From: a virus
Taxonomy: Duplodnaviria > Heunggongvirae > Uroviricota > Caudoviricetes
Reading direction: 5' to 3' (one strand)
DNA: 7,698 nucleotides
Virus record (IMG/VR): IMGVR_UViG_2684622670_000020
Both the position numbers and the translations under genes were made by a program. Positions within the stretch are counted from its first letter, which is position 1; each line of letters begins with the position of its first letter. Of the stretch, positions 18 through 7,698 are shown piece after piece. The notes under the pieces are model-generated. The model saw only the letters and a list, made by a program, of their open reading frames with translations. It was not told where the DNA came from and did no database searches.

Positions 18-264
18 TGAACAAAGCGCACGTTGTCTGGCCCCCTGCGGGTAAACGCGCCTGCCACAATTTTTTACCGTTGCTCATGTTGTAAGCGCGC
101 AGGTAGTTATCTGCCGTAGCGGCGATAAACAGCACATTACCCGCAGTAGAGATCGGCCCGCCCAGCATCGGCATTTCCATATTTAACGGTACCGGAACGG
201 GCATCGGGAACGACATGCTGTCCTGCGGCGTACCAATGCGTTTCTTTTCACAAATTGAACTTTA
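1..264 (-). pseudogene. gcd: truncated 3' fragment of a PQQ-dependent (quinoprotein) glucose dehydrogenase gene
   Basis: Minus-strand frame is open from the in-frame stop at 262-264 to the TGA at 1-3 (ORF track 1..216 starts at the first Met). The segment PMLGGPISTAGNVLFIAATADNYLRAYNMSNGKKLWQARLPAGGQ matches my recollection of the C-terminal propeller region of E. coli Gcd. The last 11 codons (TTCALFMPDAA) run into the REP-like sequence and do not look like Gcd. A full gene would need about 700 more codons upstream, which are absent. Confidence 0.55.
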
Positions 265-573
265 TTAACGGATTCCGCTTATGAATAGTTTTGCTGGTAT
301 ACTGCATGCCTTGCGCTTTGTTGCGGTGCCGAAACCCGCCCGTGCGAAGTGATTTGTTTTTAAATCATATGGTTAGAGATATGAAACATACTGTAGAAGC
401 AAAAATTATTTTGTATTCATGCTGTTATGTGTTTGCGTTGGGTTCTGTATTTATTTTTTATAATCAATGAGATAAATTCATTTCTTGTTCGTGTGCTTTC
501 TCCTTTTTTGGTGGTCTAGTATCGAGTGGTGTATCACTTGGTATATCACTTTTGGAGGGGCTGGGGAGGATGC

Positions 574-1800
574 GTGGCTGGCACAAACAAACTGAGTGAT
601 AAAAAATTAAGATCGCTTCTCGGCGTAAAGCGGGATTCAGTAATTACCATTGCGGATGGTGAAGGATTAAGCATCAAAGTATCCATGATGGGATGCATTA
701 GTTGGGTTTTCTCTTATCGTCTTGGTGGGCGTGGGAGCAAGTTAGAGCGCATTGTTCTTGGGCGTTACCCTGACATGTCGTTGAAAATGGCCAGGGAGAA
801 GAGGGAACTATGCCGAAAATGGTATGCGGAAGGGCTGAATCCACGACTTGAATTAGAACTTAGCGCAGAAGAAAACCTTAACCCCGTAACTGTCCATGAT
901 GCCCTTGAATATTGGCTAATTCATTACGCAAGAAAAAAACGTAGTGACGAGGAACTGGTGCGGGCGCAATTACGTAAGCATATTTATCCGCGTCTTGGCC
1001 ACTATCCGTTATCCCGGTGTGAAACGCGTCACTGGGTGGCATGTTTTGATGAAATTAACCAGTCCAGGCCAATCACTGCCGGGCGAATGTTCCAGATTTG
1101 TAAACAGGCCTTAAGATTCTGCAAGGTTCGCCGTTATGCCTCATGTGATGCCCTGGCTTTTATGACAATCCAGGATGTAGGGCAACCATCGGGGCAGCGT
1201 GATAGGGTGCTGTCAGATAGTGAGTTAGCTGATGTATGGCGGTGTACTTATAGCGATGAACAGCAACTTTATTATCTTCGTCTGCTTAAGTTGCTTGTGC
1301 TGTTTGGGGCGCGAACAATGGAAGTAAGATTATCCCGGTGGAGTGAATGGGATTTTCAGTCATGGATTTGGACGGTTCCTAAAGAACACAGCAAAACTCG
1401 TGAAAAAATAGTTCGTCCAATTCCAGAGGGCATTCGCCCATGGATTGAGGATCTAAAAAAGGAAACGGGAAAAACAGGAATTGTACTGGGTGAAGAACGT
1501 TCCCGCCAGGCTGCTTCGCTTAAAGGGCGTAGGCTATACAAAGATTTTCATCATAATGAGCCATGGACGCTTCACGATTTGCGCAGAACATTTTCTACAG
1601 GTTTAAATAATATGGGTATTGCGCCACATATTGTAGAGCTTTTACTTGGTCATGCATTGCCGGGGGTGATGGCTATTTATAACCGTAGTCTGTACTTACC
1701 TGAGAAAATGGATGCGTTGAATAAGTGGTATGGCCGATTAGAACTTCTGGCGGGTAATCATCAAAATGTGGTGCTGTTACCTGTATCGAATAGAGGTTAA
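574..1800 (+). CDS. int: P4-family tyrosine site-specific integrase
   Basis: N-terminal arm-binding-type segment (NKLSDKKLRSLL...DGEGLSIKVS...WVFSYRLGG...LGRYPDMSLKMAREKR). C-terminal catalytic signature HDLRRTFST ... LLGH ... AIYNRS (His-x-x-Arg, His, Tyr nucleophile). The ORF track opens at GTG 526; I prefer GTG 574, which is in frame and sits 4 nt after a GGAGG Shine-Dalgarno at 565-569, giving M-AGTNKLSDKK. Confidence 0.88.
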   Translation: MAGTNKLSDKKLRSLLGVKRDSVITIADGEGLSIKVSMMGCISWVFSYRLGGRGSKLERIVLGRYPDMSLKMAREKRELCRKWYAEGLNPRLELELSAEENLNPVTVHDALEYWLIHYARKKRSDEELVRAQLRKHIYPRLGHYPLSRCETRHWVACFDEINQSRPITAGRMFQICKQALRFCKVRRYASCDALAFMTIQDVGQPSGQRDRVLSDSELADVWRCTYSDEQQLYYLRLLKLLVLFGARTMEVRLSRWSEWDFQSWIWTVPKEHSKTREKIVRPIPEGIRPWIEDLKKETGKTGIVLGEERSRQAASLKGRRLYKDFHHNEPWTLHDLRRTFSTGLNNMGIAPHIVELLLGHALPGVMAIYNRSLYLPEKMDALNKWYGRLELLAGNHQNVVLLPVSNRG

Positions 1801-1891
1801 ACTGATATTACGGGCATAGGTCGGCCAACCGAAAAGCGGGAAACCCTACCCGCCTGGCTCGTAAAGTATTTAGGGCGTTGAGGGTAGCGCA

Positions 1892-2821
1892 ATGGCTAAC
1901 GACATTAAAATTCCTTTTCAGTATTGCAACATTGAACGTGCATCAAGATTGCTGGGTTGCGAGATTAGCGATCTCGTGAATTTAGGTGTTACTAAAAAAA
2001 TAGCTTTATGCCTAAATTTATTTGATGCTCGCGCTGTTTTATATATGAATACTGATAGCAAGTCTGCAACTGCTTGGTTTGATACCAGAAATGCAAAATC
2101 GACCACATCACTGATGGGGAACAATATTACTGAATACTCCAGATTTCATCTTTTCAGATACAATTATAACGAGGAGACAGATGAAACTATACACGCGCCT
2201 TTATTCGGTCAAGACTCAGAAAACGGATGCTTTAGCTCTATTGGTAGGGCTTATGGATTGTGGCGCCTTTGGAGTGGGCTGGAAGAGCTACAAAATTTTG
2301 GAGAGTATTCCCTAAGTGGTTTTGAATTAACCCCGTGTCATCCAGAAACTGATAATCCTGCCGTACAACTTTTAATGGTTGGTGAAGATAGTGATTATGA
2401 TGAAGAAGACGATCAAATATTAAAGAATAATATTTCTATAAATGACTTGTGGATTACCGCTCATGATATAAGGCGACTTCTTGACTGTGGTGGCGATTAT
2501 TTTACGCTAACAGATAATTTTGAATCTGTAGAACCTCACAAGATGAATGGCAATGAAATTGTGCACCATTCTGCTGAAAGACATGCAAGAAATCGAGAGC
2601 AAATTTTAATGGTTGCTATGCGTTTTAAAGAAGAGCAACAAAATACTTTTAATGAGACCTGCAGAAAAAACGATGGAACGATTAACTATTCTGCTTGGGC
2701 TCGTGAGTTGATCGCCAGACCTGATTGGTTCATTAATAGTGAATTGCCAATAAAAACAGAAACAAAAATAGCAGCAATTTTAAGTAATGCTCATAAGAGG
2801 CCGAGTGAAAGGTCGCAGTAA
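1892..2821 (+). CDS. hypothetical protein, 309 aa, AT-rich orphan cargo gene
   Basis: Long ORF with ATG at 1892 and GAGGG 7 nt upstream. Strongly AT-rich compared with its neighbours (hand count of 2401-2460 gives 17 of 60 G+C; 5041-5100 in rep gives 34 of 60). Contains an acidic stretch EDSDYDEEDDQ. No catalytic motif recognised. Confidence 0.7.
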   Translation: MANDIKIPFQYCNIERASRLLGCEISDLVNLGVTKKIALCLNLFDARAVLYMNTDSKSATAWFDTRNAKSTTSLMGNNITEYSRFHLFRYNYNEETDETIHAPLFGQDSENGCFSSIGRAYGLWRLWSGLEELQNFGEYSLSGFELTPCHPETDNPAVQLLMVGEDSDYDEEDDQILKNNISINDLWITAHDIRRLLDCGGDYFTLTDNFESVEPHKMNGNEIVHHSAERHARNREQILMVAMRFKEEQQNTFNETCRKNDGTINYSAWARELIARPDWFINSELPIKTETKIAAILSNAHKRPSERSQ

Positions 2822-2840
2822 GCCTTACTCATATACTCCT

Positions 2841-6694: not shown

Positions 6695-6730
6695 TTCACA
6701 ACAGCGAACAGCGTAATTACAGGGGAAGGC

Positions 6731-7267
6731 ATGACAAAGCTGACCATTAACCGAAAACCGAAAGGCATTTACGGCACGCCGCAGAAAACGACGCAGGCGG
6801 CGCAAGAGCAGGATAAAACCACATCGGCGCATAAAGTGATACCCGGCAATCAGAACGCACAGCAGAGCCGCAAAGGACAGCCCACAGGGGTGACACCGTG
6901 GCGGCATATGACCAAACGCCAGCGCAAAAACCGCAGACGCGTTAACCGCCTTATTGAGCTGTGGCCTGAATTATTCAGCCGGAAAACACCGAAGCCGCTT
7001 AAGGTGGGGATATTCGACGACCTGATACAGGATATCGCCGCCAGGGGGCTGACATTCGGGCCGGGGGCATTACGTGCGACGCTGGCATCTTATGCGCAGT
7101 CTCCGCGCTATTACCGCGCCTTAATGGCTGGTGGCGCACGTTACGACCTGAAAGGCCAGCCATGTGGGGAAGTGACACCACAGGAACAGCAGGAGGCAGA
7201 AACGCGGCTGGCAGCACTGAATGAAAAGCGCAAACGTCAGGCGACAAAGGAGAAGACAGGCGCATGA
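6731..7267 (+). CDS. FinO/ProQ-domain RNA-binding protein (RNA chaperone family)
   Basis: Residues 75-160, LIELWPELFSRKTPKPLKVGIFDDLIQDIA...LRATLASYAQSPRYYRALMAGGARYDLKGQPCGEVTPQEQQEAETRL, match the ProQ N-terminal/FinO domain pattern (PKPLKIGI..DL......LR.AL..YT.S.RYL.....GA.R.DLDG.P.G.V). It is preceded by a 75-aa basic, Gln-rich extension. ATG 6731 follows GGGGAAGG. Confidence 0.75.
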   Translation: MTKLTINRKPKGIYGTPQKTTQAAQEQDKTTSAHKVIPGNQNAQQSRKGQPTGVTPWRHMTKRQRKNRRRVNRLIELWPELFSRKTPKPLKVGIFDDLIQDIAARGLTFGPGALRATLASYAQSPRYYRALMAGGARYDLKGQPCGEVTPQEQQEAETRLAALNEKRKRQATKEKTGA

Positions 7268-7545
7268 TTCGTGACAGCAAAGCGGAAGAACTGGAGGCTA
7301 AAGGCCTGTACCGGAGAGCGGCGGCACGTTGGGCTGATGTTATGTGGCTGGTGAGCACTGACAAGGAGCGCGAACAAGTGGCAAAGCGTCGCGCGGAATG
7401 TATCCGTAAGGCAGCACGCCCACCAGTCATACCGGATAATTTCGGAATACTGAAAGAGGCCATAAACCGCACACATACCGGGATGGGCTTACAGAAGCCT
7501 GGCGGTGAGATGTTCAGGAACTACCCGAAAAAAGGGGATAATTGA
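7264..7545 (+). CDS. PerC-like (or ANR-like) small transcriptional regulator
   Basis: 93 aa; the N-terminal segment AEELEAKGLYRRAAARWADVM resembles the conserved helix of PerC-family prophage regulators as I recall them. Start overlaps the finO-like stop (ATGA at 7264-7267). Confidence 0.5.
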   Translation: MIRDSKAEELEAKGLYRRAAARWADVMWLVSTDKEREQVAKRRAECIRKAARPPVIPDNFGILKEAINRTHTGMGLQKPGGEMFRNYPKKGDN

Positions 7546-7590
7546 TAACGGTTGTTAACTGTTTCTGGTATCGTGGTAGCAGGAGGAAAC

Positions 7591-7698
7591 ATGCCAGTGA
7601 CATTTGAAGAAGTCCAGCAACATAAAAAGCTTCATGATTTTGACGATCTGGAAACCACGACAGCAAAAAAATATCGCCGTCTGCTTTCTTCCGATGCG
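7591..7698 (+). CDS. 5' end of a further operon ORF, truncated by the window end (function unknown)
   Basis: ATG 7591 lies 5 nt after a consensus AGGAGG at 7581-7586. The frame is open for 36 codons to the window end (MPVTFEEVQQHKKLHDFDDLETTTAKKYRRLLSSDA). Confidence 0.4.
   Translation, partial: MPVTFEEVQQHKKLHDFDDLETTTAKKYRRLLSSDA

Follow-up and report, generated by a model that had tools for sequence, protein, structure and literature searches.

What kind of mobile element is present in the 7,698 nt of viral DNA held in IMG/VR as record IMGVR_UViG_2684622670_000020, here called the window, is a question raised by its gene content: an integrase, an AlpA regulator, a replicase with an iteron origin, and no capsid or packaging genes. 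An original prediction, made from the letters alone, had described it as the left arm of a satellite-type island resembling P4 and also Gram-negative bacteria's phage-inducible chromosomal islands (PICIs), and possibly a distinct sub-lineage. Profile searches and sequence comparison with the loci L001–L034 indicate that the window very probably comprises attL and that half of a capsid-forming PICI (cf-PICI) of ~15.2 kb which serves integration, control and replication, located in the first 22 nt of the Escherichia albertii hpt gene. The left arm of a PICI-type phage satellite had thus been correctly recognized, while a P4-like origin or a new sub-lineage was not supported, as the architecture is that of the already described cf-PICI family. 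All nine predicted components (int, a 309-aa open reading frame (ORF), alpA, switch, rep, iterons, ssb, finO and perC) were recovered in the order given, using the ORF list with Pfam, PHROGs and NCBIfam, and so was the co-directional operon in which the replicase gene is followed by the iteron origin, only the switch gene being on the opposite strand.

The complete island

The complete genome CP117654.1 (L004) was retrieved by an exact look-up of the PerC protein of the window, and aligned with all 7,698 window bases at 99.987% identity, with one mismatch (L004-window offset, 2737). To the right of the window, L004 carries genes for an 82-aa ORF, a Phage_capsid protein (at 10852), an S78 prohead protease, a portal protein and the Phage_HCP and Phage_connect_1 connectors, followed by HNH, small terminase (TerS, Terminase_4) and large terminase (TerL) genes and a 93-aa ORF, after which attR is fused to hpt. 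The two att cores are 15,170 bp apart, and no tail or lysis family was matched among the called genes of L004. The direct repeat expected on the right was therefore found, as a 22-nt attR core. The reported lack of capsid and packaging genes in the window was also correct, as these begin just past the window end in L004, and psu, sid and delta, rightly said to be missing from the window, are absent from L004 and L001 too.

The capsid-to-TerL module is also present in L001, L003 and L005. In L004 and in four other loci that extend far enough past an identical PerC, the gene after next encodes the major capsid protein, and in E. coli L001 the same arrangement is found between gcd and hpt, with no perC and with the right arm as in L004. 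Among 5,426 complete E. coli genomes, the integrase occurs at ≥99.5% identity in 9 and matches extend over ≥80% of the window in 7; the integrase adjoins gcd in all of the genomes listed with an island match (8/8). E. albertii and E. coli copies of the island are 99.5–99.9% identical, against only 90–92% for the flanks, which indicates recent horizontal transfer. Between the last island ORF and attR, L004 contains four non-coding copies of a ~45-nt repeat (CTAACCCGTTGATATTTTCGG...; L004 17511–17865), and these could serve as a cos site or be recognized by the terminase.

Relationship to known satellites

The cf-PICIs, a family described in 2022–23 and found in ~13% of Enterobacteriaceae genomes (PMC10085698), are defined by the SatelliteFinder cfPICI model (PMC10085698), with the original description in 10.1101/2022.09.08.507074. 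The features of that definition found here were an integrase and att repeats, AlpA with a replicase and iterons, a head and terminase module (in L004), no tail, holin or lysis genes, and a length of ~15 kb. The prototype EcCIEDL933 makes its own small capsids and needs only helper tails, and its transfer as a satellite has been demonstrated by experiment (10.1101/2022.09.08.507074). It is O-island 51 (OI-51), also named CP-933C, and its counterpart in strain Sakai is Sp7 (L012), annotated as ‘prophage Sp7; untypable’.

EcCIEDL933 and Sp7 share with the window int, alpA, a minus-strand ribbon-helix-helix gene, the genes for the Icd-like and DUF4222/RgdR proteins, a replicase gene, iterons, orf83, the genes for the single-strand DNA-binding protein (SSB) and PerC, and a small ORF. 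Beyond the window they share with L004 the capsid, protease, portal, connector, HNH, TerS and TerL genes, a length of ~15 kb and the lack of tail and lysis genes. Protein identities to Sp7 were 48% for the integrase, 49% for AlpA, 51% for the small ribbon-helix-helix protein, 86% for the Icd-like protein, 71% for the DUF4222 protein, 89% for orf83, 70% for SSB and 61% for PerC (to PchE), and the packaging half of L004 has 78% nucleotide identity to Sp7 over 6.8 kb. The island differs from the prototype in its att site, which is hpt here and a site next to roxA in EcCIEDL933/Sp7, and in having in addition an int-alpA RNA, orf309, orf75 and a ProQ/FinO gene, as well as a canonical LexA box at alpA. 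Judged by this gene content, ssb, perC and the DUF4222 gene are standard parts of a cf-PICI left arm and not additions. Of the two genes once taken as a hint of a distinct sub-lineage, ssb (like perC) accordingly belongs to the prototype layout, and only the ProQ/FinO gene is extra.

EcCICFT073 and other classical Gram-negative PICIs have the same int-alpA-replicase-ori order, rightward transcription, two iteron sets and RgdR and PerC regulators (PMC6092414), but are without capsid, portal and TerL genes, and in EcCICFT073 alpA reportedly answers to the helper phage but not to SOS, whereas here a conserved LexA box stands before alpA. A classical PICI was rejected because the near-identical L004 has a full head and terminase module. 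P4 and P4-like satellites likewise depend on a helper phage and encode an integrase, a regulator of the AlpA/Vis type and, in the early operon, an Icd-like protein, whereas the present island has its own capsid genes and is without psu, sid, delta, epsilon, the alpha primase and a C4/CI antisense RNA (Rfam). A P4-like satellite was rejected, as P4 core genes are absent from the window, L004 and L001 and an Rfam scan (E up to 1) gave no C4 member. SaPIs (pathogenicity islands of Staphylococcus aureus), the Gram-positive PICIs, resemble the island in having a rep-ori cassette with cognate iterons, and LexA control of SaPI operon I (Ubeda 2007, as cited in PMC6092414) is a precedent for such control of a satellite operon; however, their hosts and proteins are unrelated, they use an Stl-type repressor, and LexA there controls the packaging operon and not the master activator.

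Attachment site and chromosomal flank

The left end of the window contains the following features.

1 to 246, minus strand: gcd remnant (pyrroloquinoline quinone (PQQ) glucose dehydrogenase), chromosomal flank (Pfam PQQ, 1.3e-17)
248 to 380, plus strand: gcd-hpt spacer with the native hpt promoter region, now reading into the island (alignment to empty sites)
381 to 402, plus strand: attL core ATGAAACATACTGTAGAAGCAA, the first 22 nt of hpt (empty-site homology stops at 402)
527 to 552, plus strand: tandem arm-type integrase sites GGTGTATCACTT and GGTATATCACTT (motif repeated near attR)

Alignment identified 248–402 as the gcd-hpt spacer plus the first 22 nt of hpt, the spacer region being 92.3% identical to the K-12 reference for this flank (L002 2799–2953) and 98% identical to the E. 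albertii type strain. In that strain, NBRC 107761, the site is empty: window positions 1–402 aligned at 98% and were followed by an intact hpt, and K-12 is a second genome with an empty site. The island had been predicted to start at 217, a position that must be revised, as 217–380 comprises the gcd remnant end and the gcd-hpt spacer, attL occupies 381–402 and island DNA begins at ~403. The attR core ATGAAACATATTGTAGAAGTAA begins hpt in L004 and L001, and the attB core is ATGAAACATACTGTAGAAGTAA; comparison of the attB, attL and attR cores would place the crossover inside TGTAGAAG, at 392–399. The tandem arm-site motif recurs 60–85 bp inside attR (L004 18201–18227), with only one further occurrence in the L004 locus.

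The host of the insertion is E. albertii, as the gcd-remnant junction is exactly that of the type strain. The remnant is 89.8% identical to K-12, with 140 bp deleted at the 3'-end and 2,124 bp deleted from the 5' part of gcd; these two deletions leave gcd as a 216-bp remnant (window 1–246). Since the same junction is found in the island-free type strain, gcd was lost before the island arrived and independently of it.

An Enterobacter hormaechei island (L014 4483–4504), whose integrase is 83% identical, lies at the hpt start codon and carries a Toprim/D5 primase, so that the hpt att site is used in more than one genus and by more than one satellite type. An analogous pair of arm-type sites is present in the Enterobacter island at hpt. 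Integration puts 15 kb between hpt and its native promoter (window 248–470; L004 17515–18309), and a 29-codon ORF directed at int now begins with this promoter and the start codon of hpt. The hpt gene at attR encodes a protein with a T4I change, and a search for a consensus promoter upstream of it in L004 gave none. Nothing was found in the literature on hpt as an attachment site or on PICIs of E. albertii.

The int-orf309-alpA module

Downstream of the arm-type sites, the integrase gene is followed by an RNA element and a conserved ORF.

574 to 1800, plus strand: tyrosine integrase, 408 aa, GTG start (Pfam Arm-DNA-bind_3, 2.7e-16; Phage_int_M; Phage_integrase, 1.1e-15)
1809 to 1875, plus strand: int-alpA RNA (Rfam RF02996), 5' leader of orf309 (55.2 bits, gathering score 35.8; E 1.3e-9)
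1892 to 2821, plus strand: orf309, 309-aa conserved protein with an N-terminal MerR/Xis-like winged helix
2844 to 2876, plus strand: terminator-like hairpin after the orf309 stop, with perfect 10-nt arms CATACTGATA and TATCAGTATG

The int-alpA RNA, which folds as a three-way junction, lies directly 3' of the int stop and ends 17 nt before the orf309 start. Ten other loci have it in this place, six of them comparison loci (L013–L018) and four from IMG/VR, with compensatory changes in 7 of 23 predicted pairs. In the comparison loci Rfam also matched unrelated RNAs, STAXI and EFASI in the island of Photorhabdus (L015 12101–12944) and sar in the Sakai prophage Sp6 (L012 17262–17328).

No Pfam match was obtained for orf309, and its homologues are likewise without a Pfam domain and named only ‘hypothetical’ or ‘uncharacterized’. 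These homologues (L013–L034; 24–100% identity) lie always between int and alpA across genera and share the C-terminal motif HHSAERHAxNRE...INYSAWAR. The synteny of int (406–408 aa), orf309 and alpA (93–94 aa) extends over E. coli, Enterobacter (also at hpt), Klebsiella, Photorhabdus and Morganella, while the loci differ in their downstream replicases. Consequently, orf309, which had been regarded as cargo, is not variable but a conserved partner, syntenic with int, the int-alpA RNA and alpA. In the Photorhabdus and Morganella spacers other palindromes occupy the place of the 2844–2876 hairpin, and the scan of the window gave 18 terminator-like sites where 8.7 were expected.

Control of alpA

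The region between orf309 and the switch gene comprises the following elements.

2890 to 2909, plus strand: candidate LexA (SOS) box TACTGTATTTTAATCCAGTA, 69 nt before the ATG of alpA (pattern and matrix score)
2927 to 2955, plus strand: hairpin GCCTCC...GGAGGC, predicted to sequester the alpA Shine-Dalgarno sequence (read from the sequence)
2959 to 3243, plus strand: alpA, AlpA-family activator/excisionase, 94 aa (Pfam Phage_AlpA, 3.8e-11)
3272 to 3291, minus strand: G+C-rich terminator hairpin where alpA and the Arc-like gene converge (eight base pairs, of which seven are G-C, then TTTGTTTTAT on the minus strand)

AlpA also matches PHROG 2790, ‘excisionase and transcriptional regulator’, with 1.6e-37. 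A LexA site would be a TACTG-(TA)5-CAGTA box in a promoter region, with which the candidate agrees at the sequence level, and the pattern TACTG-N10-CAGTA is expected 0.01 times per window. Scores were obtained with a matrix of 20 E. coli SOS boxes, whose own scores range over 12.6–27.1 bits, and are approximate. The candidate scored 24.4 bits and was the sole window site of ≥12 bits; a box of ≥15 bits was found 64–69 nt before alpA in 14 of 15 IMG/VR loci, in which only two other sites reached ≥13 bits in 74.6 kb. A LexA-type box occurs at the same offset in the E. coli, Enterobacter and Morganella loci, and it is the best-conserved block of an otherwise diverged orf309-alpA spacer. Between int and alpA of Sakai Sp7 (L012 36149–36279) there are two weaker LexA-like sites, of 17.9 and 14.1 bits. 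The pairing of the alpA Shine-Dalgarno sequence is kept with different bases in Morganella (GCTCTCTG/CAGAGGGC) and Photorhabdus (ATACTTCC/GGAGTAT), with moderate alifold support.

The conserved box suggests that the inducing signal of this island may include the host SOS response directly, and alpA may be wired in this module differently from alpA of EcCICFT073. A bolder reading, to which we give somewhat less than even weight, is that int, the int-alpA RNA, orf309 and alpA form a self-contained, SOS-wired induction cassette, in which LexA would directly repress alpA while the Shine-Dalgarno hairpin and the orf309 leader RNA would add post-transcriptional control.

The switch region

To the right of alpA, a minus-strand gene faces the promoter of the long rightward operon.

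3381 to 3560, minus strand: 59-aa Arc/YlcI-YnfO-like ribbon-helix-helix protein, candidate switch repressor (PHROG 228 Arc-like repressor, 2e-6)
3554 to 3608, plus strand: rightward promoter TTGACA-16-TGTAAT (3554–3581) and palindromic operator GTGTAATGACACATTACAC (3590–3608), read from the sequence
3628 to 3662, plus strand: conserved leader hairpin upstream of the Icd-like gene (leader fold z = −2.1)

The Arc-like gene starts at a GTG that lies partly within the −35 element of the rightward promoter, a promoter absent from the output of the consensus scan. The match of the protein to NCBIfam YlcI_YnfO_N (5e-4) was below the cut-off, and its Morganella counterpart matches DUF3950. Minus-strand genes of 59–61 aa occupy the switch position in L003, L005, Sp7, L014, L015 and L016. 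In L003 and L005 the operator repeats are GTGGCTGACAC and GTGGGCCACACC, placed around a TTGACG promoter, so that two unrelated 59-aa alleles each come with their own operator repeats; in E. coli L001, window positions 3417–3849 are exactly the replaced segment. In these comparisons the Arc-like gene with its operator behaves like an exchangeable immunity cassette, and the 59-aa protein would repress the rightward operon.

The leader hairpin is kept in L005, L003 and Sp7 despite their differing operators. Two Rfam matches were taken as chance, one to the R1162 antisense RNA at the leader (24.5 bits, gathering score 55) and the other to CrcZ (18.7 bits, gathering score 95). RNA immunity of the P4/P1 type was ruled out, as the same Rfam scan (E up to 1) gave no C4/CI match.

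Replicase and origin

The replication genes and origin lie in the middle of the operon.

4413 to 5819, plus strand: replicase with a Toprim-like N-domain, a RepA/DnaB-type RecA-fold helicase and a C-terminal winged helix (AAA_25, 3e-43)
5822 to 6021, plus strand: iteron origin, two (A)GTGGGGAR clusters flanking an A+T-rich stretch at ~5915–5960 (motif counts)

The replicase matched RSF1010 RepA in the PDB sequence search, and no recognizable primase catalytic domain was detected in it. In the structural model, the ATPase core has low confidence (mean predicted local distance difference test score 62), which limits statements to the level of domains; the C-terminal winged helix is among the confident regions and matches winged helices of the ORC/Cdc6, MCM and Fur types. 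Residues 1–122 (window 4413–4780) share 45% identity with the N-terminus of the Sp7 DUF927 replicase, a protein that otherwise differs.

The motif AGTGGGGAR occurs seven times, always within 5822–6011, against ~0.1 expected, and none of 200 shuffles reached seven. Its shorter core TGGGGAR has ten copies in 5824–6021, in two clusters around a stretch of ~70% A+T; two iteron sets around such a stretch are a hallmark of PICI origins, for which exchangeable rep-ori cassettes are also known (PMC6092414). The iteron changes with the replicase type, being GTGGGGA with RepA, TAACCCGCA with DUF927 and GGTAGACA with the D5/Toprim primase, and on this comparison rep and ori are exchangeable cassettes here as well. 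From the model we infer that the replicase is probably an initiator-helicase that reads the iterons through its winged helix.

Other proteins of the rightward operon

The remaining genes of the operon are listed below.

3694 to 3891, plus strand: Icd-like small protein, first gene of the long rightward operon (NCBIfam phage_ICD_like, 7e-18)
3884 to 4111, plus strand: orf75 (PHROG 2196, 8e-10), no counterpart in Sp7
4117 to 4416, plus strand: DUF4222 protein of the RgdR family (Pfam DUF4222, 9.4e-24), its stop overlapping the helicase start
6021 to 6272, plus strand: orf83, conserved (PHROG 1231, 6e-51), Sp7 homologue ECs1586
6269 to 6694, plus strand: SSB (Pfam SSB, 4e-16; TIGR00621 above cut-off), C-terminal GIPF
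6731 to 7267, plus strand: ProQ/FinO-family RNA-binding protein with a basic N-terminal extension (Pfam ProQ, 2.1e-25)
7264 to 7545, plus strand: PerC-family regulator (Pfam PerC, 6.5e-36)
7591 to 7698, plus strand: start of the 82-aa ORF, cut by the window end (L004 gene 10328–10576)

The Sakai homologue of the DUF4222 protein is ECs1581 (RgdR), a basic protein of ~99 aa whose RGD motif at residues 20–22 has been linked to activation of the enterocyte-effacement locus (LEE), while a natural CGD variant gave no activation of type III secretion (Flockhart et al., PMC3378721). In the protein of the window PGD replaces RGD. The DUF4222 gene precedes or overlaps the replicase start in loci of both the RepA (AAA_25) and DUF927 types and also stands ahead of the replicase in a DUF5906-carrying plasmid (H33; RefSeq annotation), and none was called ahead of the Toprim/D5 primases of L014–L016. 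This pairing with RepA and DUF927 replicases hints at a role in replication, and suggests that the primary role of RgdR may be in satellite replication. A sequence search for relatives of the DUF4222 protein with a solved structure found none.

The ProQ/FinO protein matched ProQ, FinO, NMB1681 and RocC in the PDB sequence search. Its gene is present in L001, L003 and L005 and absent from Sp7; ProQ/FinO genes have been noted in satellites before. As to an RNA partner, the gene showed no correlation with the leader hairpin, which is present in the ProQ-less Sp7 too, or with the int-alpA RNA, which is absent from the ProQ-carrying L003 and L005. The PerC protein has its homologue PchE encoded in the prototype cf-PICI. 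No known defence system was found by PADLOC among nine window proteins.

Discussion

By analogy with EcCICFT073 and EcCIEDL933, a signal would raise AlpA, which together with Int would bring about excision and would also turn on the rightward operon. The helicase, probably via its C-terminal winged helix, would bind its own iterons and replicate the circle with the island SSB, the island terminase would package island DNA by a cos mechanism into the island's own small capsids, and these would take tails from a helper phage. Several points weigh against the assignment to the cf-PICIs and against this cycle. The cycle is borrowed from work on those two islands, and the capsid and packaging half was read outside the window, from copies with 1–2 mismatches. 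GTGGGGA iterons accompany a RepA-type AAA_25 helicase here, where the prototype has a primase-helicase, its DUF927 replicase, with TAACCCGCA. The consensus promoter scan of the window was not informative (8 sites against 10.7 expected from shuffles), so that promoters were assigned by eye. Finally, alpA of EcCICFT073 reportedly responds to helper phage and not to SOS alone (PMC6092414), and an SOS link for alpA thus cannot be assumed.

Other explanations of the locus were weighed against the same evidence. A classical PICI that forms no capsids, or a new P4-like sub-lineage, in either case using helper capsids, could be imagined because PICIs and cf-PICIs have interchangeable left halves (PMC10085698), the window itself is without structural genes, an Icd-like gene and AlpA occur in P4-like elements too, and D5/Toprim primases, which classical PICIs have, accompany the int-orf309-alpA module in its Enterobacter and Morganella relatives. 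Yet capsid, protease, portal, HNH, TerS and TerL genes follow PerC in L004 and four further loci, L001 has the same right arm, and no homologue of psu, sid, delta or the P4 alpha gene was found in L001, L004 and related loci, which makes such an element very improbable. A shade less probable still is a decayed and immobile remnant of a cryptic prophage, which is how O157 genomes annotate such elements: the Sakai homologue is labelled as an untypable prophage, OI-51 has been called cryptic prophage CP-933C (PMC3378721), and the adjoining gcd gene is degraded. That degradation, however, is shared with the island-free type strain and has nothing to do with the island, in which all ORFs are intact and attL, attR and arm-type sites are present; the island is 99.5–99.9% identical in two species whose flanks are 8–10% different, empty sites exist, and the prototype EcCIEDL933 is experimentally a transferable satellite.

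The relation of RepA to the RSF1010 helicase, the presence of FinO-family and SSB genes, which are typical of plasmids, and partial matches of 78–85% identity on some records of a plasmid collection would fit a plasmid-derived or conjugatively mobilized module (ssb, finO and a RepA-iteron replicon) captured by an integrase. Such an origin is very hard to credit, as relaxase, oriT, type IV secretion and partition genes are not present, the matches covering at least 80% of the window are all chromosomal, at gcd or hpt, and the module continues into a phage head and terminase operon. A conjugative-plasmid leading region, which the original prediction had asked to be considered, was looked for, and the context proved to be chromosomal. 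The findings that had been named beforehand as contrary to an island were all examined, and attR, empty sites and a chromosomal context were found instead.

The cf-PICI assignment is thus retained, and as such the element is an ordinary member of the family, conceptually nothing new; apart from the conserved LexA box at alpA, none of its features would add to what is known. If the SOS-wired cassette were real, satellites bearing it, both cf-PICIs and classical PICIs, could start on DNA damage with no helper-encoded inducer, unlike EcCICFT073, and the box offers a testable hypothesis for the induction of some Gram-negative satellites. The element also shows that an attachment site lies at the start codon of hpt, where a 15-kb insertion parts hpt from its own promoter. 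For E. albertii, a LEE-positive emerging pathogen, a cf-PICI near-identical to the E. coli copies fits spread between species, and the element carries regulators of the PerC and RgdR families, which in E. coli can modulate LEE expression.

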